A DNA stretch of 61,965 bases, filler included, from 16 parts of 16 records of this genome joined end to end with filler, not necessarily neighbours in it, one strand, 5' to 3'. Numbered from the whole stretch's first letter, positions 11,825-61,965 are shown. The notes: generated by a model from the sequence alone, not told the origin. Numbers and translations: made by a program.

Positions 11825-13759
11825 TTAATTATCCGCCTCAAGGCCTGGCTGGACAGTGAGAAACACACCAGCGCGTGGTGCCAGCTCCAATGCTGCGAGG
11901 CTGTCCAACTTGGTGCCGTTCTGTACCTGCAAAATTTCGGGCGCCTCGATCGACAGCGGATGTGAAGTCGTGGTAGCGTTCCAGCCCCGGATTTTCGATG
12001 CAATCGTTTTCAGGTCCTGTGAGCAGCGGGACGTTAGACTTGTCTCTGGCGCGGGCCTGTGTTTGTCTTGGCAATGTATCTAGAGAAATGGAAACCAGTG
12101 CATTTTCGTACCAGCGTCAGTGAAACCGTCACGGCTGCCTCCGCCCAGCTTGCCACTGCAATGATCAGCTGTCCAGCTGTGCTGTGGCTTGGCTGCACGA
12201 GGAAAGCAGTAGCCTTGACGTCCGTCACGCTGCTGCTGACCACAGCATGCCAGTCATGCTGATCGGCAAACCAGCCAAGCATCTCAGTACCATTTGCCGA
12301 CAAGCCGGACGCATCAATCCAAGCCCACAACGCCTTGTTTTGCGCAGCACTACTATATGGCGGTCGACCCCACATCCCAAAAACCATCCCTGAGGGGTCA
12401 CACATAGGGTCACCGATTTTTCCATAGCCACCTGGGTTAGTGATCTATAAACACCAAGAATGCACAAATATTTGGACGTTCCTACCGCGATGCACGTTGG
12501 GATGAGTCAGCATGTCATTGAAGACGCCAAACTGCAAGCCAGACGTAGCGAGCAGCATCCATGTCGCGTCGCCGCAAGAGCCAGACTGACGATCGCTGCA
12601 TGCCGAGGTACCGCCGTCATCAAATCCCTCCCCGAACATTACCGAGTCCATGAGAGACATATGCTGCGCGTACTCAAGCACGTCAATCTCTCCGCCACCT
12701 GAAGACCAACGGTTGCCACAATGTAGATCAAGCATGCCCCCCGACTTGTCGCTGTCGCCGCGACCGGTAGAGACGGCACGTGATGCGCGGAGCATCGTAT
12801 GCGCGTCATACGCCACTCCATCTACACGCAGAGTGCAACCAAACGAAACAAACGAAGCAACAAAGAAACTCTGGTCAGAGATCGCTCGCATTATTTGCGG
12901 CGAGTGTTATCCGATATCAAATAGGACGATCAATGGTCTCTCTAAGACACTGACAGAGGGAGGGACAAACGACTGTGCATCGCGACCCTGACTAACCGAG
13001 GTAGATGCCATCGATATCGAGCTCCTCCGTGGCAAGCACTAGGAGACGAGACCAGAAGTTTGCGAGTCTCGAATTCGCGCGAGTCGTAAATGACACGTCC
13101 ATATCGCATCCCTCGCAAATCGGCGATTCAGTTGGCTTTGACAGTGGTGTCGTCCAGTCAGATGAGAACAATGCAGTCGCTGCGTGCTCGCTAAACCAGT
13201 GGTGTGGTCCGAATGTCGTCACCAGATCCTCGGTCGGGCCGTTGTCCTCTATCGATCCCCACAATGTTGCTGACGTCTCTAGTTCTGAACCCGTTGGCGG
13301 AGGCGTTGGTGGTGGTATTGGGTCTACGTATGCTGGATGCGACATGAGCTCCCCGTACATGGCAAAGAACGCCCAGAGCTCGGGAGTCACAAAAGAGAGC
13401 GAGCCTGACGAGTAATACGATTTGACCTTTGAGTTGCCACGGTGCATCCTCTCAGCAAACGACTTCGCGGCTGCGTTTGCGACAGGATCCAGCGGATATA
13501 TTATCCATGGATTATAATCGTTGCCTTGGTGAACGTTTGCGATGTTGATTCCGTCAGAGAGCAGCGTTTCTGGCGGTACAATCTGCGCCTCGATCTGGTA
13601 GTAGCGCTGTTTTTGGAAGTGCACGGCACTCTGCGCGGGCTTATTTGGGGTCACTAAAACGTCGAAGTGTAACAATGCTGGATCACCAACTTTTAGCCTG
13701 AGTGGTCCAGTGAACGCCTCCAGGACACAGTCGCTGCTGCTGCTGCTGCTGCTGCTGCT
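11825..13759 (-). CDS. DUF6067-family putative glycoside hydrolase, multi-exon (5' partial)
   Basis: 'LHFDVLVTPNKP', 'NVHQGNDYNPWIIYP', 'KVKSYY', 'PELWA', 'SRLANFW..IDGIYL|DGVAYD', 'LDLHCGN', 'DSVMFGEGFD', 'SGLQFG..DML', 'GMVFGM', 'MLGWF', 'IAVASW' follow the bacterial DUF6067 pattern. Last exon ends '..GLEADN*' at 11825. Confidence 0.8.
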
Positions 13760-13993
13760 NNNNNNNNNNNNNNNNNNNNNNNNNNNNNNNNNNNNNNNNN
13801 NNNTTAATTAATTAANNNNNNNNNNNNNNNNNNNNNNNNNNNNNNNNNNNNNNNNNNNNAGATCCATCGGCTGTGCCTCAGATCGAACAATACGATGGCG
13901 GAGCGCGCGCAGGCGATCGCGTATTCATATCGCCGCCGCGCGGACGACGTCGCGACGCCGCGACGCGTACGCGCGCGGGCGGCTGCCATATCG

Positions 13994-42719: not shown

Positions 42720-43123
42720 CCAAATGCGCTCCAAATCCAGCAACTGTGCGCGGCGGGCTCGTTGAGAACGCTTTGCACGCAGGCAGTGTATAATATAGTC
42801 CGCCGGTAGACCTACCGCGCGGTACAGTACACCGGAGCAGAGCCTTCAAGCCTACTATGTAGTATCCGGTTCAGGAAGAGCTCTAGGATTCTACCGAGTA
42901 CCGCGGTATAATATCGGATCCAATATCGTACGCCGGTACTGCGCGCCGGCGCACGCGAGCGCCCGTACATACGTATATGTAAAATTTATCCGGAATACGT
43001 ACCCGACGGCGAGCGCGAGCACGCGCGAGCACGGCGCATCCGTCTAACGCTCAGGATCGCGAGCTTTTGCTGGGCTGCGCGCTCGCGTGCGTTTGCTAGG
43101 GGCGAGCTATCCGTCGCGGTAAT

Positions 43124-44309
43124 ATGGCTGCCCGGGCGATGACGCCTGGCGAGCTTGCAGACCCACCATGCGTGTCCAGCGTGCCGATTCTGGGCACTGC
43201 ACCGTCAACTATGGAGGAGTACTGGTTTGACCTGCGTGGCTACACTGTGCTCGACAACGCGCTCTCTCAGCTCGAGCTGACCGCGATCAACAAATGGGTG
43301 GACGAGCGCGAGGAGGTGATCCGGACGATCATGCGCACCGATCCGATCGACTACATGCCAATCGAGCCGTCCATCTCCCTGGGCGGCATGTACGTGCAGT
43401 CTTATCACAACGGCGAGCGCAACCATCGATCGCAGGTGGATGACACGGTCGATGATGGCGTGAACCTTCAGTTTCCGTATGAGACAGGTCTCGACGTGTT
43501 CGAAAGCCTGATTGACCACGAGAGTTGGATGGACCGCGTGCGCCACTACCTTGGCGTTGGCTCCCAGCCGTATTTGCACGAACTCTTCCTTAATCTGCGC
43601 GGCGAAGGTGGCTATATTGGGTGTCATGGAGGAGGGCCGCAGTTCACCCACACGGGAGAAATCCTACGGTCGCCGTGGGGAGCCGCTGTGCACCGCACTG
43701 GTGAGACTGGGCACGATCCGCACGCCGGCCAAGGGACGCACCGTGGTCACCACGTCCAGTGGGCAGTTCCATATCTCTCGATCATCGTAGCACTCAATGA
43801 CATCGGTCCAGGCGACGGGGCAACTGTTTGCATACCAGGCAGCCACAAAAGTCTCGTTGGCCATCCTTTTCAACAGGCGATGGTGACCGAGGGAGGCAAA
43901 GTTGAAGGGGCGCAGGAGATGCACCTCACAGCGGGCCAAGCGCTGTTGTTTCAAGACAGTCTGGTGCACGGGGCGGCAGCTCGGGTCAATTCGGACGGCT
44001 GGCGGCGTACGCTGTGTTTCCGCTACTTGCCGCAAGAATACTCTACCGACCGTTTTGGTAACAAACACTCCCAAAACTGTCATGGCCTGCACCGGTTCTT
44101 TCATCATTTTGAACTGCATGAACTGTGTTCGAGCAGGACATGCCCCCAGCAGGGCTCTCATGGAACGCTTGACTCCAGCACGCCGGGCAATACTCACACA
44201 GCGTGCCACGGAGCATGACCCATGGGGGCAGAGCCACCTTAAGCTAGTTGAGGCTGCGCGACCGCTCGATGCGGGGGAGCCAGGGCACACCTACAGTGCC
44301 AAGATCTAA
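43124..44309 (+). CDS. PhyH-family Fe/2OG oxygenase with H-x-G motif
   Basis: 'EEYWFDLRGYTVLDNALS', 'LIDHESW', 'CHGGG', 'ALNDIGPGDGATVCIPGSHKS', 'AGQALLFQDSLVHG..RRTLCFRY'. An intron at about 44059-44136 joins the last exon 'HAPSRALMERLTPARRAIL'. Confidence 0.88.
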
Positions 44310-47358: not shown

Positions 47359-47619
47359 GTAGTAGGTCCAGATCTGACGACGGCGTTGCTTAGCTTAGAA
47401 GCTACTGGTTGGGGCTGACCCGCCCGTGTTAAAACAAGAATGGTGGCCCCGATGGCGCCGACCGTTCGCCTGGCCGTAGCTTCGCAGCCCCTTGCGACTG
47501 TCTGTCAGACCACCCCTCCACTGCACAGCCGCGTCCATAGAGAGCTTGATATGGCATCTTCCATCGACAATGCCCAGATTGTACCAATCTGTTCTCGCGA
47601 GTGCCCCGCGCGCGCGCGG

Positions 47620-47885
47620 CTAGATCTACGGTACCTGGTAGTAGTACTACTATACTAGTATATCCAATATAGTAGAGCATATGATCAAGATATATGTAGT
47701 ACTACCTTCAGGTAGTACTATATATTATATGTATGATGCACGCCGGCACGCAGTTGGTTCAAGTCCTGAGAAATGTACTCTCGGCAGTATGAAATGTAGG
47801 TACAAATGGACGCATGTGCAACCATGTACTAGTAGTGCATGCGCGCGCGCGATGCATGCATGCGCGTGCTGGTCGCGCGCGCTTC
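47620..47885. promoter_or_regulatory. Palindrome- and RY-rich intergenic/promoter region
   Basis: Hairpin tagtactacct-tc-aggtagtacta (47697-47720), palindrome tagtagtactacta, and alternating purine-pyrimidine tract gcatgcgcgcgcgcgatgcatgcatgcgcg (about 47837-47866), all upstream of ATG 47964. Confidence 0.4.
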
Positions 47886-47963
47886 TTCACACACGAGAGC
47901 TGGCACCGACTAGATCTACTTCTACAGCCGAACAGCCGTGCCTACGTGCTGGTCTTGCTAGGC

Positions 47964-50736
47964 ATGCGCTCGCGCCTGTACGCTCCCAGCTGCCGCAGCA
48001 TACAGACACTGCTCCAGAGACATCGCGACAGGGGCATTAGGCCGCAGCAGGCGGCGAGGAGGGGCTCGAGCACTACTGAGAGCCTGGCGTGTGACAAGTT
48101 TGTACACGGCTCGTCGGAATACCACGGGAATGGCGACTCAGAACTCAATACAGCTGCACGTGCAAGAGATTCGTGGTTTAACGGGATGCATGCGCCGACT
48201 CCTGGGACGCACAGTCTGCGAGACGCCGACCTCTACGGCACGCTGCACGAGAAACACGTGCGACTGTCACCAGAAACACTGGCCGCCATGTATGACGATG
48301 TCCGAGACCGGACGCTGCGCTCGTTAGGAGACCTGGAAGACATGCAGCTAGTGGGAGAGATGGAATCATCGCTCAATCCGATGATCTGGGCTGTGGGTCA
48401 CAACGCTCACTTCTACGAAACGATGGTGGTGCGGCTCCTCTGGCCGAACATGCAGGTAAGATCCCGCTGGTCACAGCTGCTTCCTCCATATAGGCCTACG
48501 TGCTGTTTGACTGCGTGTTTTCCCGCCGACAGATTCACACGCCAGGGTCTTTGCTTGATGGGTGGGACGTGGATGCTGCGTTTGACTCGTTTCGTGTCGA
48601 CCATCCGGATCGCTGGGACGGCGAAGGGCTCTCGGAAGTGTCGGGTAGAGAGGACGGAAGCTACCCACCTTTCGAGGAGATCCTCCACGGCTATCGGGAC
48701 CGAATGACAGACATGTTGCGCTCTCGGCTGGTGGATAAGCAGGCAGAGATTGGCCCAGACGGTCTTGTTGAGCCGGTGGAGACTTACCTTCACACCTATG
48801 GGAGTGCGATGATGCGTTTCTTTTCGCCTGGTGTTGACACTAACAGCAACTATCTATATGGCATTCAGCCGTTTGTTGTATTTTTAAGGCAAACTAACGC
48901 ATATCCGTTCGCGTGTGGCGACCTTCTGCACCAGTCTTGCACGAACACTGGCACATTGAAGACTGGATCCAGACCCGCCAGACGATGGGGTGGAAGGCAC
49001 CAAATCCTCTTCCTACCAACACCGAGCAACGCGCGGTGGCTAACGCCTGGGGAGGGACCTTCGAACTCGATCGTACAGCTCTTGAGGCGGACCTCGTCGA
49101 GTAAGGAACACACTCACACTCTTTGCTTCCTGTAAATCGAACCGCTGTGAGATGTCTGTTCCTTAGCTTCTAGCCACCCGTTCTGCCATTCTGAGCATCA
49201 CTGTCGTCAACCCAGGAACGGCAGGACAGAGTATCTTGGCGAACATATCGTCCGTAATCACATCACGGCCGTGGGCACCGACAACAGCTGTAGTAAAGCT
49301 ACAAGAGCTGTTCGGGAACGCGGAGGGCTGGCTGGGGATGTATTCGTCCCCGGAGGGCAGCATTTGCTAGGTGGTGTACCGAGCCAGCCTTGGGTGTTTG
49401 ATGCAGAGCGATATGCACATCCTGTAACGGTGGAACCGTTTGAGATATCAAAGGCACCTGTCACAAATGCCGAGTGAGTACCTCACATCCGCTGACAGCC
49501 AACCGACGGGCCCGATCAGCGCGCGTGGTTCGACCATCTCTCGGCCATTCAACTTTAGTAGCGGACCCTGCTTTCAGGTTTGTTCGTCTTGTGGAAGTTT
49601 ACCACGATAATTGTGTTGATCATAGGTACCAACTTTTTGTCGAAGCTGGAGGCTACCAGACGAGGGAGTGGTGGACGCATGAGGGGTGGCGGTGGCTTAC
49701 ACGCGGAACGGTGGCAATGAACGTTGGCCACCATGAAACGACAGACGTCGGTGAGAAAAACACCCGGATTGCTCCGCGATACTGGCGGCACGGGAGTCCC
49801 GGAGAGGCTGGTAGTGAATGGAGGCAGAGAATCTTCGATTACGAGGTGAACCTGGCGCCACATGAACCTGTTGTGCATGTATCATGGTACGAAGCTATGG
49901 CATACTGCAGGTGGGCAGGTCGTCGGTGCGTTGATGGCATCATGCAAGTGTTGACAGACGTCTGCTTCATTGGAGCCAGTAGTGCCCCTTTTCCTCTCTG
50001 ATTTTTGCAACCGGACTACGATGCCTGTGCAGATTGCCAACCGAAGCAGAGTGGGAAATGGCAGCTCTTTGCGTTCCATCCGCAGACGGTAACGGGCTCG
50101 AGCAGAATGACGACGGCACCGGTCCGCACAAACGAACGTGGGTAGTTGGCCTGCTCTAGCATGAATAGGCACCAGATGATGATTGATTCTGCGGATGTTG
50201 CAGGTATCCATGGGGTGAGGCGTTGCCTACGTCAGACTTGTGCAACCTCGATGGATACCGTGGAGGGTTGTTAGATGTCGCGGACTTAAGCTCGGGTGCG
50301 AAACATGCTTCACCTTGGACAGTACGAGTGGACGGCTACCTGACTAGTCCGTTCGTTTCTGTACGAACTATGTGGACAGGTGATTCCGCATTTGGCTGTC
50401 GACAAATGATGGGCCAAGTGTGGGAGTGGACAGCGACGGCGTTCTACCCGTTCCCTGGCTTTCTACCAGATTTCCCATATCGGGAAAACAGCTGCCCTTG
50501 GTTTGGCTATCGAAAGGTAGGTGCTCAGATGTATCATCTGTCATTACACTGGCTGTCGGTGCAACTCCAAATTTGTCGGCTTGGTTGCGACATACTGCTT
50601 GCTGCAGGTAGTGAAAGGGGGGTGCTGGGCTACGTCAGCGCCAATTGCGCGTGGAGGCTACCGGCATTCATTTTGGCCAAATATGGACGCCGTCTTCACT
50701 GGATTTCGAACGGTGAAGGAGCCCGTTGCAGCTTGA
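47964..50736 (+). CDS. DinB_2 + FGE-sulfatase sulfoxide synthase, SenA (selenoneine synthase)/EgtB-like, multi-exon
   Basis: 'LNPMIWAVGHNAHFYE', 'FDSFRVDHPDRW', iron motif 'HEHWHIE..TRQT', 'VPGG..LG..FDAERYAHPV', 'PVTNAE', 'PVVHVSWYEAMAYCRWAGRR|LPTEAEWE', 'YPWG', 'GDSAFGCRQMMGQVWEWT', 'PWFG..KGGCWAT..GFRT'. Exons join through GT-AG introns. Confidence 0.9.
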
Positions 50737-55612: not shown

Positions 55613-55713
55613 NNNNNNNNNNNNNNNNNNNNNNNNNNNNNNNNNNNNNNNNNNNNTTAATTAATTAANNNNNNNNNNNNNNNNNNNNNNNNNNNNNNNN
55701 NNNNNNNNNNNNC

Positions 55714-58169
55714 AAGCAGGCAGAGTACATGGCTGATGTGTTTGATGCAGCACGCACCTCAGGAGTGATGGACAGAGTGTTTTGGTACACCATCAATCCA
55801 CCGTGGGGCAACGATGGCATGAGCTTGACGAAATATGAGGTTCCAACCTCTGGTTACCATGCATATCAGACGTATACTTCGCAATATCCAACTTGGAAGA
55901 CTGACGATGACGACACAGGCGCATGTACTCTCAGGCTGGCGGAGTTGTGCCCACAGCACTTTCCCACATCTGCCTGCGAACTGTGCGCAGGAACTCGCCA
56001 ACATCCTCTTCGCATCGCTGGATGTAGCCATGCTGATATAGTCAAGTGGTGCTCAGTCGCAAGCAGCGTTCGGCTCGACCACCCACGTATTTTCTTCACT
56101 GCAGAGATCATTGCTGCGACCCGAGCGAATATTGCTGCCCATGCCGATTTGGCCGCTGTGTATCAGACGCTCAAATCACGCGCGATGTGGGACAGCGTTG
56201 GTGGAGTTTCGTGGAATGTGCAAGACCATGCATCAATGATCGCCTTGACATATTTGATCGAGACCGACGCATCCACAAAGGCAACGATGTTCACCAAGCT
56301 GCTGGCTGGCATGGATTCGCTCCCAGCCGACACGACCGACGAGTGGACAACCGGTCTGACTGCTTGGGCGATGGCAGTGATGTACGATGTCACCTACAAC
56401 GAGTTGACTGCTGCTCAGCGAACCAAATATGCAGCAGATATTGTTGGCATCGCTGATCGGGTGTATTCGTATTATCGTCACGGCGACTACAACAACCATG
56501 TTTATTGTGAATATGGTCCGTTGATCTATCCAGGGTTGGCTCTCGCTGGCGACGGATTGCAAGACGAAAAGGCCGAAAAATACCTGAATTTTACGTCGGA
56601 CTTTTTGACGAACCATGCAGCTAAGACGTTTGCACAAGTCGGTGAGACAGACGGTGGATGGCCGGAGGGGCGAAGTTATCATGCGCTGTTTATTCACTGG
56701 GCTACTCAGCAGCTGTGGGCTTGGAAGATTGCAACCAATATCGACCTTTTTCCAAATGCAACAGGCCTTCGGGGGGATGCCACCTGGATGACACACACGA
56801 GTTTGCCACATGACAACCAGCCTGTGGCTGTTGCAGACATCAACACAAGTCCAGACACGCCTAAGATTAATGGCTGGGACGAAACTTTCTATTATCTTGG
56901 GATCTTGGCTAGGGAGTACCAAGATGGTATTTCGCAGTACGCATCCAACGCGTCTGGCTTTGGACAGTACGAGTTCAGGCTCTGGCCATACATTATCTCA
57001 CACGATCCCACCTTACCACCACAACTGCCGTCCACCCTACCCACTGCAGCACTTTTTGAAGGCATCGGCTGGGCACCAATGCGAAGCGATTGGAGCAGTG
57101 ATGCAACTTTTGGTATGTTCGTTTGTGGCCGGTACTTCGCGGGTCATCAGCACCATGATCAAAACCAGTTCATCATACATAAGAAAGGCACCCTTGCGAT
57201 CGACGCGGGTGAGTACGGGGCACGGGCGACAGAATGCCACAACACCATTCGAATCGGTGGCAACCAACGGATGGACGGGATGCCAAATGGAAACGACCCG
57301 ATGCGATTTGTTGGCGATCCAAAAATCGATCCTCCAGACGGTCAGTGCTACACAGGATCAATTCTGGCATATCAGCATGCTCCAGAACAGGGGTGGACAT
57401 ATGTGGCAGGAAACGCGACGACTGCATACGACGCATCAAAGGTGTCCGAGTTCACTCGTCAGTTTGTGTATTTACGACCGGACCTTTTTATCATCTACGA
57501 CCGAACGGCAACTCTCAGTCCTCAACAGCGAGAATGGATGCTTCATTCACTTGAGCCAGCTTCGCTCAATGCGTTCCAGCAAGAAGTGACAATAACGAAT
57601 GGCAACGGTACTCTGTGGGCAAAAATGCTGCATCCAACTGGTGAGTTGCTGCTGACGCTTTTAGCTATTCGAAAGGTGTTCCTACGATATTGACATTGGT
57701 TTGCCAAGTGTGCACCGCCCCATTTCGACTAAGCAGCCGACGTGTGTAAGTAGATGTGGAGTTGACCCAGTACCAAATGACTGCGGACCACGATCCTCCG
57801 CACGGTTACGACCAGCAGCACCCAAGAAATGACAACTACATCAAATTTGCCCCTTCTTCGTCGCCGGCTGGACGACAAGACTTCGTATGTCACTGATAAT
57901 TTTACGTCTGCCTCGTCGTCATTGTTCTCCATCCCGACACTTGCGTGTTTGCGCAGGTCACTGTTCTGTACGCCGCCGATGCAAATTCTCCGCAAATCGC
58001 TTCGGCAACGTTGACATCAACGCCTGGTGCTGGAGGTAATTGGTATGGTGTCATGGTGTTGCTCAGTGGGAACACGTACGAAGTATCGTTTGCTCCGGCA
58101 GGCGATGTGCAAGGGACTGTGCGCATCAACGGGCGCGAGTCTACTCTACCGACTAGTATTGTCCGCTAA
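55714..58169 (+). CDS. Multidomain protein: end of GH-A-like barrel - KTDD linker - 6-Cys module - heparinase II/III-like polysaccharide lyase (5' partial, multi-exon)
   Basis: 'QAEYM..VFWY..GYHAY'; 'HPRIFFT', 'YNNH', 'GGWPEGRSYH', 'MRSDWSSDATF', 'GHQHHDQNQFII..LAIDAG', 'TECHNTI', 'FTRQFVYLRPDLFIIYDR'; final exon ends 'LPTSIVR*' at 58169. Confidence 0.85.
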
Positions 58170-59594: not shown

Positions 59595-61838
59595 TCATCG
59601 CAACTTTGCCACGAACACCGTGTAGCTGTTTGGGGGCACGAGCACCGCCTTGCCACTCACAGCGCCCACTTCCACCCTCTTTGGCGCGATCAGCTGCGGT
59701 TGACTTGGGGTATTGGCCCCGGTGAGATCCGGATAGCTCATCGACGTCACCTCCATCGGCGTGGACAAGCCACTCCCAAAATCTATCGTCACGTTCAGAG
59801 CTATTGGCTTATCCCACGCAACGCGTGCCACGACGGTCTTCCTGTCCTCAGAGATTTGCGCGGAGTAGAGCCCGGGCTCCAGACCAAACGGGCACACGTG
59901 ACCGACGCCTCTTGCGGTGTCGTGCTGCGTGAAGTTGAGAGCAAGCGGCTGCATTGTGTCTTTGACCATAGCGTGGACGTACCCCGGTGGCTGCAGCCAA
60001 GTGACATTTGGCAGAAAGCTGCAGCGCAGGTCCAGATTCAGGCCATCAGATTGTCAGGCACATCATAAAAACGCAACGTGGAATGACAACACGAAAGCCG
60101 ACTCACAACGCAAGCCCCTGGTCGTTGAGTCCGCCCTCGTTGAAGCCACTCCGCTCCATGCAGAACGACGCCGTTCGACCCTTGATTCGCTCTGCGAGTA
60201 GGTGGCGCGAGAAGTACATATTCAGATCCGCTGCCTCGTCCAGCATCCGCCTCACCTGTGCGCAACCACAGGCTACTCACAGGCCATTCGCACAATTTGT
60301 TGGTAGCCAGAAGACTAGTGCAGCAATCGGAGACACAAGAAGTACCGCCAGAGGAGGAGGCCGAGCAATCGCACCGTGTGGTCGCCACAGTTCGTCTCGC
60401 CGTTCAGAACACCCCAGTCCTCCATGTTTGTCATCTTCACCACTTTGTCAATCTCGCCAGCGCCACCCTCGGCCCCATTGTGGAGGTCCACCAGCAGCTG
60501 GTCCCCCAGGCCGAGTGCTTTGGCCTTAGCGGCATCTGCGGCGCTCATCCCAGCATTGTCGGGGAACAAATAGTAGAGCTTTCGGGGCACGCCAATCGCC
60601 TTGGCCCTCGCCTCCATCGCTTGCACTTGCTCGACAAAATCACTGTTATACTCTTCGTTACCGAGCTCGAAATAGCTGACGTTGTACGGCTCCGGGTGGC
60701 CGTCCGCGATCCTCTGCTTGCCGAGGCTGGTCGCACCACTGCCCCAGCAGTACTCAACGAGATCAGCCAGCATCCCCACGTCGTGGGGGTCGATGGTAAG
60801 CAGCGGCTCTGCACCGATGGCGTTGGCGAGATCCACCATCTCGAACAGCCCCCAGCCGCTCATGAGCCCGTGCCTCCAGATGCCATCGACAGCGCTCGGG
60901 CGCAGCCACGGTGGCCCACGCCAGCGCGTCCATGGCATAGGCCCGCTTGTGACGTACGACCCCCCAAACCTGATCATAGAGACGCCCATCTGCTGCAGTG
61001 CTGCAGCTGATGCCGCGCGCACTGGTAGCCTCTTGAATCTCCCCCATTCCCCTGCCATCAGAGACGCAAAGCCGATTTCCACGGTACCAGAGCCACTCAA
61101 CGATAGCGACAGCTGCCCACCACATGCGACACAGACGTGTGCCGTGAGGTCTGACATCTTCTCCCAGTCTCGTCCGAGGTAGCGGCCACTAGGCGGGCAT
61201 CCAATGCCCTGCTTCAGGACCTCAGAGTCGGTGATTCCGGCGCATGTCACGCTGGCGTTGGGAGTCAACGAGAAGGGCAATTTGCTCCAGTTCCCCGCGG
61301 GGATACTGACTGTCGCACTGGCCAGCGGTGGCGCACGCACACGGCTGCCTCGCGATTCTAGCGTTACCGTCACCTCTACTGCTTCCGCGGACCGCGCCAG
61401 TAGGTATCCATCGTATACCTTCCCAGCCTGGAAGGGCAGGCCCTCGTTCCCGAAGCCGCGGTTTGTGGCGCTCCCGGGTCCTGGACCGAGCACAAGCGCG
61501 CGGCCACCGGGCATGAGCGAGCTGCCGCTGACTTTCGCAGCGCGATCCAGGATCCATGCCTGCTGCGGTGGGTACGTCATGTTCGCCGTGGTATCGTTAA
61601 GCCGCGTTCCCCGGGCGAAGTTTCCTGCGTCCGGCACTGGTTCGAAGGCGTTCCCGTTGATAAGTTCCGCGGACAGGCCACGCGCCTGATGAGCGTAGCC
61701 AGCATCGCTGTGGCAACCCATGAAAAGGGGATTGATGCGGTGCAGCGGCGGGCGACGCGGGTCTATCTGCAGCGTGCACCCGGCCTGTGCGACCGGCATA
61801 CCCGGCACAGCGGCCAGGACAAGCACCAGCAGCACCAT
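59595..61838 (-). CDS. Secreted GH51 alpha-L-arabinofuranosidase-like protein, multi-exon
   Basis: Signal peptide MVLLVLVLAAVP; 'INPLFMG..GLSAELING', 'NRGFGNEG', 'IRFGGS', 'WTRWRGP..RP', 'LADLVEYCWG..RIADGHPEPY..FELGNEE', 'GETN'; C-terminal 'ANTP..P..VPPNSYTV'. Confidence 0.9.
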
Positions 61839-61965
61839 CGAGAGGACGTCGCAGCACCACCCCCGCACGCACTGCAGCCGACCACGCACCGCGGCGACCC
61901 CGCCACGGCGGCGAGCAATTGAAAATATGGTGCGATGAATCACCAGCCGCGCGCGATTCCTCATA

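Follow-up and report, generated by a model that had tools for sequence, protein, structure and literature searches.

An intron-split eukaryotic gene for a SenA/OvsA-related protein with a divergent predicted active-site pocket

The window analysed here, a stretch of 61,965 nucleotides (62 kb) made of 16 parts of 16 records of one genome joined end to end with filler, contains a spliced gene on the plus strand at positions 47964..50736 that encodes a member of the NHISS superfamily, the group that includes EgtB, OvoA, SenA and OvsA. Joined by coordinates, its nine exons give 1950 nt, comprising 649 codons and one terminal stop, and its eight introns (66–152 nt) all follow the GT...AG rule (8/8). 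The predicted protein combines a DinB-like domain with an FGE-sulfatase/C-type-lectin domain, both of which are also carried by its full-length relatives, and has the three-histidine iron site and active-site tyrosine of the superfamily (H146, H257, H261 and Y595), residues that are invariant in its clade. A look-up in a protein atlas returned the same family assignment. No methyltransferase domain is present in the protein, which stops 12 residues past the FGE domain. An earlier note on this DNA had described an intron-split eukaryotic gene of the EgtB/OvoA/SenA/OvsA family at this position, with DinB_2 and FGE-sulfatase domains, several quoted motifs and no fused methyltransferase; joining of the exons, the eight introns and the Pfam and other domain scans bear out that description in full.

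All nine exons lie on the plus strand. Exon 1 (47964..48455) encodes residues 1–164, which comprise an Arg/Ser-rich N-terminus (residues 1–48), an extension (residues ~50–100) and the first part of the DinB-like domain; the NCBIfam model for SenA matches here with 38.2 bits at residues 102–157, and Pfam DinB_2 gives a weak match (E 0.068). Residues 165–254 plus one base come from exon 2 (48533..48803), which was aligned to relatives, and exon 3 (48935..49100) carries the motif HEHWHIEDWIQTRQT. An inter-domain insertion and the beginning of the FGE-sulfatase domain (Pfam E 1.9e-6) are found in exon 4 (49216..49473), and the domain continues, with a clade-specific insertion, in exon 5 (49626..49925; SenA model 79.7 bits, E 2.8e-22). 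Exon 6 (50033..50137) has a further FGE-sulfatase match and includes the sequence RLPTEAEWE. Exon 7 (50204..50295) was placed by the exon model, and its junction with exon 8 (50380..50516; SenA model 40.5 bits) yields the motif GDSAFGCRQMMG, followed in exon 8 by PWFGYRK; both this junction motif and PWFG had been quoted in the earlier note and are confirmed. Exon 9 with the stop codon (50608..50736) scores 29.3 bits with the SenA model and 32.8 bits with the C-terminal signature TIGR04373 (cut-off 71). Scanned exon by exon, FGE-sulfatase was matched in exons 4, 5, 6, 8 and 9 as successive, collinear parts of the profile (best E 6e-10), while exons 2, 3 and 7, scanned singly against Pfam and NCBIfam, gave no family match.

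The exon junctions are supported by comparison with P0002, an uninterrupted relative of 593 amino acids, since the joined exons reproduce its sequence with 70% identity over 602 aligned positions. Three metagenome contigs lend further support to the splice model: in the intron-bearing contig L146, matches are interrupted at the boundaries that correspond to exons 1/2, 3/4 and 4/5 of the window gene, and in contigs L136 and L143 at that between exons 8 and 9. Translation is inferred to start with the ATG at 47964; contigs from RNA libraries begin near 47929 and give almost no cover over most of 47822–47932, which agrees weakly with this choice. Contigs from four marine RNA libraries span the locus at 95–100% identity, mostly at least 99%. 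No spliced joints are reported among these contigs and most of them read through the introns; they may be DNA or unspliced RNA, and we do not count them as evidence of expression. One oligo-dT contig aligns from 49626, the exact start of exon 5, and its 15-letter overhang agrees with the end of exon 4 at 13/15 positions, which hints at the exon 4/5 junction.

RNA-library contigs of separate studies show 13 single-letter differences from the window across the locus, among them 48086, 48117, 49471 and 49701, which would fit variation within populations of this organism or of one very close to it. Upstream of the gene, at 47600–47900, runs of GC dinucleotides (gcgcgcgcg, atgcatgcatgcgcg) alternate with 'tactagta/tagtact' repeats rich in AT. 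A repeated element is suggested here by a short contig from an RNA library, which matches 47755–47822 and is unrelated to the window on either side of the match.

To place the protein within the superfamily, we scored it against NCBIfam models exon by exon and summed the bits, and scored its relatives at full length. The SenA model (NF041186) outscored the EgtB model (TIGR03440) in five of the six exons that match either, and outscored the OvoA model (TIGR04344) throughout. The exon sum for SenA was ~221 bits (38.2 + 33 + 79.7 + 40.5 + 29.3), below the cut-off of 420 bits; full-length relatives in the clade reached 282–339 bits (P0022, 417.7), compared with 439–520 bits for bacterial SenA rows. 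For EgtB the exon sum was ~172 bits and the relatives scored 206–266 (cut-off 360). The OvoA model gave at most 42 bits per exon, less than EgtB on every exon (cut-off 400). With TIGR04373, the 32.8 bits of exon 9 compare with 39–57 bits for clade relatives (most 44–51), 59 for OvsA and 80–99 for SenA rows. In phmmer searches, the spliced protein matched the SenA-type proteins P0037 and P0101 at ~40% identity (345–372 bits), the OvsA-family protein P0164 at 31% identity (217 bits) and EgtB rows with 162–175 bits. P0164 serves as the OvsA reference, as it scores 554 bits to the OvsA structure 8U41 and has the full OvsA motif. When solved structures were compared with P0002, OvsA gave 192 bits, EgtB 155 and the Variovorax paradoxus SenA 106. 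By these sequence scores, the overall similarity of the protein is closest to SenA-type bacterial proteins among the characterised classes. The earlier note had likewise placed it nearer to SenA than to EgtB or OvoA, and in this the NCBIfam scores, phmmer bits and trees (below) agree.

The active-site residues were read from an alignment of the window protein with 201 database relatives of 400–1100 amino acids (202 rows). Classes of the superfamily can be distinguished by a 17-position composite motif, in the scheme of Kayrouz et al. 2024 (bioRxiv 10.1101/2024.04.10.588772). As presented there, and for the first two also in supplementary table 4 of PMC11030361, the motifs are xNEH--HRHxHYYN(F/Y)(F/Y)R for SenA, xNEH--HRHxHYMQAYR for OvsA, xSDH--RRHQHYYNWDR for EgtB-I, xSHHYYRRHQHxYNFFx for EgtB-II and RxYH--DxHxHYF(Y/F)AFx for OvoA. 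The window protein reads LNAH--HRHWHYNHSFM. It thus matches 8/13 constrained positions of SenA, 7/13 of OvsA, 5/14 of EgtB-I and 5/11 of OvoA; where SenA has E, Y, N, F/Y and R, it has A, N, H, S and M.

These positions fall in five short motifs. LNPMIWAVGH (48372..48401, plus strand) supplies N138, equivalent to N63 of SenA, A143 at the position of SenA E68, and the first iron ligand, H146. FDSFRVDHPDRW (48581..48616, plus strand) holds H188 and R191, the 'HR' pair of SenA and OvsA (RR or KR in EgtB), with R191 equivalent to SenA R120. The second and third iron ligands, H257 and H261, lie in HEHWHIEDWIQTRQT (48940..48984, plus strand) together with W260, a position occupied by Gln in EgtB and Met in SenA and OvsA. 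In FPYRENSCPWFG (50472..50507, plus strand), Y595 occupies the catalytic Tyr position and N598 that of SenA Tyr366 and OvsA Met401. Finally, HSFWPNM (50665..50685, plus strand) places H627, S628 and F629 at SenA N395/F396/F397 and OvsA Q430/A431/Y432, and M633 where SenA, OvsA and EgtB-I have a conserved Arg, an assignment based on the ungapped alignment of NFFPPAR with HSFWPNM. A gapped HMMER alignment to OvsA had put the catalytic Tyr on a Phe of the window protein; this was ruled out by the multiple alignment and the invariant PYRENS, which assign it to Y595.

The pattern of retained and changed residues divides the pocket into two parts. The iron triad (H146/H257/H261), the catalytic Tyr position (Y595), N138 and the H188/R191 pair are kept. 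N63, E68 and R120 of SenA are a proposed SeGlcNAc-binding triad, and the E68A mutant is greatly impaired (PMC11237966); the window protein retains the equivalents of N63 and R120 (N138 and R191) and has A143 in place of E68. All three hercynine-binding positions of SenA, Tyr366, Asn395 and Phe396, are changed, to N598, H627 and S628. As described in the OvsA study (bioRxiv 10.1101/2024.04.10.588772), a swap of these three residues turns OvsA from a histidine user into a hercynine user, and a small residue at the A431 position is tied to the use of histidine, not hercynine. On the donor side, marked by N138, H188 and R191, the predicted pocket therefore resembles SenA and OvsA, and on the acceptor side, marked by N598, H627, S628 and M633, it appears new.

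Comparison with individual enzymes points the same way. SenA of V. paradoxus (NF041186; 8K5I/8K5J) shares the two-domain fold, three-His site, Tyr position, Asn63, Arg120 and HR pair; in contrast to it, the window protein is ~200 residues longer, has Ala for Glu68, Asn/His/Ser for Tyr366/Asn395/Phe396 and Met for the Arg after NFF, and is encoded by an intron-split eukaryotic gene with no senB or senC beside it. The Ser of the window protein is, like Ala431 of OvsA from Halomonas utahensis (8U41/8U42), a small residue where hercynine users have an aromatic one, and histidine-using OvoA also has Ala here. It differs from OvsA in having Asn/His/Ser/Phe/Met for Met401/Gln430/Ala431/Tyr432/Arg and Ala for Glu, and from OvoA in lacking the fused C-terminal methyltransferase. 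According to the same study, OvsA is almost exclusive to aquatic gamma-proteobacteria (bioRxiv 10.1101/2024.04.10.588772). EgtB I/II (TIGR03440; 4X8B, 6O6L), the second-best family model, shares the fold, iron triad and catalytic Tyr; unlike EgtB, the window protein has none of the Ser, Asp/His, Arg-Arg and Gln positions, scores below the cut-off and falls outside the EgtB clade. The pocket fits none of the characterised types, and by this comparison the product is probably not selenoneine. Nor does the motif occur among the six 'unknown' subfamilies A–F in supplementary table 4 of PMC11030361.

The window pocket is shared by a family of eukaryotic proteins. HWH-YN-HSF-M is found in 27 other rows of the alignment, and the window protein carries the complete clade motif N-x-H / (H/Y)R / HWH / YN / HSF / M. 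In a 16-sequence alignment of the clade with a mean column identity of 47%, conservation of the pocket residues is 90% or higher, up to full invariance, and the iron triad, catalytic Tyr, HR pair, HEHWH and PYRENS are invariant; this strong conservation of the replaced residues argues against decay. Named members include Emiliania huxleyi XP_005777026 (annotated 'sulfatase modifying factor'), proteins from Tisochrysis lutea and a Picozoa single-cell genome, and an MMETSP transcript, along with the fused proteins of Ostreococcus tauri (XP_022839615, 952 amino acids, annotated 'Glycosyl transferase, family 1') and Cymbomonas tetramitiformis (KAK3235416). The remaining members come mostly from marine metagenomes. 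We scanned 185,579 prokaryotic species, one genome each, with the basal clade member P0022 as query. This gave 540 related stretches, the best 80 of which represent 79 distinct loci; 74 were evaluated. The window motif was present in 0/74 of these loci, which were mostly SenA-type, with 13 EgtB-II-like and 3 EgtB-I; members ranked below the best 80 of 540 could be missed by this count.

Phylogenetic analysis comprised three maximum-likelihood trees, two quick ones with 70 and 65 rows and a careful one with 65 rows and 444 columns, rooted on a single OvoA-like row, with P0244, P0162, P0043, P0128 and P0002 dropped as long-branched or truncated. In the careful tree (support given as UFBoot/SH-aLRT), the window protein clusters with P0004, P0005 and E. 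huxleyi (4 rows, 98/93) inside a wider clade of 22 rows (100/95), which is part of a eukaryotic 'HWH' clade of 30 rows (98/93). This clade joins OvsA (31 rows, 83/66), then a trio of OvsA-like proteins (34 rows, 84/89) and then 10 SenA-type rows (44 rows, 97/95). EgtB-I and EgtB-II form a separate clade outside (11 rows, 100/100). Quick and careful trees agree in placing the eukaryotic clade inside the SenA/OvsA radiation and outside EgtB-I/II, so that the protein does not group with EgtB or OvoA in the free trees, a grouping that the earlier note had named as one that would refute its SenA assignment. Taken together, motif and trees point to a eukaryote-restricted, uncharacterised subfamily nested in the bacterial SenA/OvsA (selenoxide synthase) radiation, at a depth that is not settled.

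The same note had proposed lateral transfer into a protist, which is not indicated by the data: any bacterial origin is old, because the gene has eight introns and the clade is common to haptophytes, prasinophytes and Picozoa. A second eukaryotic group (P0123, P0131, P0133, P0141, P0171, P0137 and P0142; Tisochrysis, Picozoa) is sister to the clade of the window protein. Its pockets read HWH-YQ-SFY and HWH-YN-NFY, with RR or WR replacing HR.

Residues 1–48 of the window protein have a net charge of +7, with 9 Arg and 9 Ser/Thr, no hydrophobic run and the first acidic residue at position 22. This composition is compatible with a putative mitochondrial or plastid presequence. The N-termini of relatives have mixed charge, unlike that of the window protein; the extension at residues ~50–100 is conserved and common to P0002 and P0003.

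Several clade members (906–963 amino acids) are fused to a glycosyltransferase of family 4 (GT4), placed at the C-terminus in proteins of the Ostreococcus type and at the N-terminus in P0141. The NHISS part of the fused green-picoalgal proteins belongs to the same clade, has the HWH-YN-HSF-M pocket and is 43% identical to the window protein; by contrast, the window protein has no GT domain, and its intron-rich gene differs from the single open reading frames of the green algae. A search with the fused GT4 domain also found stand-alone GT4 homologues among shorter proteins, on contigs equal in length to those that encode unfused NHISS proteins. At 46/68 marine metagenome loci, GT4 was either fused to the NHISS gene or encoded on the same strand 1–274 nt downstream; of the 22 loci lacking GT4, 18 have less than 500 nt of sequence downstream of the NHISS gene. 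The surrounding genes are eukaryotic and in conserved synteny, in the order PAP_fibrillin, Patched-like, NHISS, GT4, Alg9, Nse4 (L080–L133, e.g. L084:10016-13006). Gaps as small as 22 nt are unusual between two eukaryotic genes and could conceal a fusion or a small intron.

As a bacterial control, we examined 10 SenA-type loci with scanned flanking open reading frames, and found SenB adjacent in 9/10, SelD in 5/10 and EgtD in 1/10. The NHISS–GT4 pairing of green picoalgae mirrors bacterial senA–senB, and the fusion or adjacency of GT4 suggests a sugar-borne donor. The algal GT4 keeps SenB N20/T23 (GN..T) and R155/K158 (LR..KD) and an atypical EX7E motif. A locus of one bacterial metagenome-assembled genome (L005:6410-11659) has two SenA-scoring paralogues in tandem, of 439 and 492 bits, and after them a putative binding protein of a selenate ABC transporter (TIGR04553, 379 bits).

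We consider it about an even chance (probability roughly 0.5) that these proteins constitute a new subfamily of selenoxide/sulfoxide synthases that would use a sugar-borne Se or S donor and an acceptor other than hercynine. Such an enzyme would work as SenA and OvsA do: with Fe(II) and O2 it would join a selenol, or else a thiol, to the imidazole of a histidine-type acceptor, and an elimination would then free the seleno- or thio-histidine. As donor, the likeliest candidate is a 1-seleno or 1-thio sugar from a SenB-related GT4, a partner that would have to be encoded elsewhere in the organism of the window. Histidine, or a lightly modified histidine, would be favoured over hercynine as acceptor, because a small Ser occupies the position of OvsA Ala431 and the contacts that hold the trimethylammonium group of hercynine (an aromatic residue and Asn) are lost. 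On this view the enzyme would make a metabolite of selenohistidine type that is not selenoneine.

Several observations weigh against this proposal. The data are sequences, and nothing in them shows selenium rather than sulfur chemistry. The sugar-binding set is incomplete: the E68 position is variable across the clade (A/G/S/V/D), so the donor may differ or bind differently. The match of the algal GT4 to the NCBIfam SenB model (E 1e-11 to 1e-17, 42–64 bits; cut-off 300) does not mark it as a clear SenB, and its score is higher with NF038229, which bona fide SenB matches as well. The SenB motifs were dropped as a marker of selenium, since they are equally frequent in weaker bacterial GT4 matches (40 and 44 of 48) and are thus not selenium-specific. 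The GT half of the O. tauri-type fused protein had no sequence match in the PDB. GT4 genes beside the NHISS gene were seen in the green-algal subclade and not in the few loci nearest to the window, which have short flanks. Within the 62-kb window, tblastn found no GT4 homologue (73 GT4 queries, E 1e-3) and, with bacterial queries, no SenB, SelD or EgtD (E 0.01), and the search for SenB, SenC and EgtD that the earlier note had advised came back empty there; a SenA query used as positive control recovered the NHISS exons. As to the depth of the placement, OvsA is sister to the eukaryotic clade in all three trees with weak support (83/66 to 91), the rooting on one OvoA-like row and the paraphyly of SenA in the trees count against a strong claim, and an approximately unbiased (AU) test on a reduced set of 31 rows (LG+G4) did not reject a grouping of the eukaryotic clade with EgtB (p 0.177).

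The earlier note had taken the gene for a selenoneine synthase, that is, a genuine SenA orthologue which joins hercynine and a selenosugar at imidazole C2, the pocket changes being lineage-specific ways to bind the same substrates. We now regard this as very unlikely. SenA is indeed the best NCBIfam model, SenA-type proteins are the nearest characterised class (40% identity, 345–372 bits), the clade is nested among SenA-type rows, and the eight motif positions kept include the N, the HR pair, the His triad and the catalytic Tyr. Yet the window protein and its relatives (~221 and 282–339 bits) remain below the SenA cut-off of 420 and the 439–520 bits of SenA rows, and the C-terminal signature stays under its 71-bit cut-off where SenA rows reach 80–99. 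Five of 13 motif positions differ, among them all three hercynine contacts, residues that switch the preference between histidine and hercynine in the work on OvsA (bioRxiv 10.1101/2024.04.10.588772), and Glu68, whose replacement by the very residue found in the window, Ala, greatly impairs SenA (PMC11237966). The absence of EgtD from the 62-kb window also speaks against this assignment.

Sulfur chemistry alone deserves more weight, though we think it rather improbable. Here the enzyme would be a sulfoxide synthase that makes 2- or 5-thiohistidine from histidine or hercynine and cysteine, gamma-Glu-Cys or a thiosugar, giving an ergothioneine- or ovothiol-like product without selenium. Most of the superfamily carries out sulfur chemistry, and new bacterial NHISS types that make thiohistidines keep appearing (PMC13674229). 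The loss of Glu from the SenA sugar triad, a GT4 partner that is not a clear SenB and a sister relation to EgtB that is compatible with the AU test would all fit. Against it, the protein is without the RR/KR pair, Ser, Asp/His and Gln of EgtB, matches 5/14 EgtB-I and 5/11 OvoA motif positions, branches apart from the EgtB clade (100/100) and stays under the cut-offs for EgtB (~172 bits summed; relatives 206–266 versus 360) and OvoA. Fusion or adjacency to a SenB-related GT4 is, moreover, hard to square with an amino-acid thiol as donor; a thiosugar may still serve. Finally, thio- or seleno-imidazole chemistry may have been abandoned altogether, leaving an iron oxygenase that acts on another acceptor (a peptide, heterocycle or sugar conjugate) or a non-catalytic protein. 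Five pocket positions unlike those of every characterised class, ~200 extra residues in the N-terminal extension and two insertions, and the lack of a pathway partner in the 62-kb window are in keeping with this possibility. It is nevertheless unlikely: the iron triad, catalytic Tyr and HR pair are invariant at a mean column identity of 47%, which argues for retained oxidative coupling, strong conservation extends to the altered pocket residues, and the gene is intact and covered by RNA-library contigs.

The other genes of the window are eukaryotic, and include a tubulin-tyrosine ligase, leucine-rich repeat, PHD/Myb and BTB proteins and a cyclic nucleotide monophosphate-gated channel. A PhyH-type dioxygenase (43100-44218, plus strand), a heparinase II/III-like protein (55669-57693, plus strand), a GH123-like N-terminal domain (12992-13807, minus strand) and an arabinofuranosidase-like domain (60315-61964, minus strand) are also encoded; none of these four neighbours is obviously connected with the NHISS gene. 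Pfam found no methyltransferase among 27 large open reading frames of the window, a scan in which an OvsM-type enzyme was not specifically searched for.

A full-text search of the open-access literature found no published description of the eukaryotic 'HWH' clade, which would add one class to the published classification by active-site motif. The place of this clade of major phytoplankton groups beside SenA and OvsA, its link to a SenB-related GT4 in green algae and its invariant pocket suggest that eukaryotic primary producers make a thio- or seleno-imidazole metabolite not yet described. To our knowledge, pathways dedicated to small selenium molecules (selenoneine, ovoselenol) have so far been described from bacteria, and we know of no agreed source for the selenoneine-type compounds of marine animals. 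It is tempting, if tentative, to suggest that haptophytes (Emiliania), prasinophytes (Ostreococcus), Picozoa and the protist of the window share a eukaryote-specific selenoxide synthase that, together with a SenB-like glycosyltransferase, would make a selenohistidine-type antioxidant. The clade supplies concrete proteins for assay, and E. huxleyi and O. tauri can be cultured. If the suggestion is true, primary producers would supply the marine food web with organic selenium as a dedicated source.

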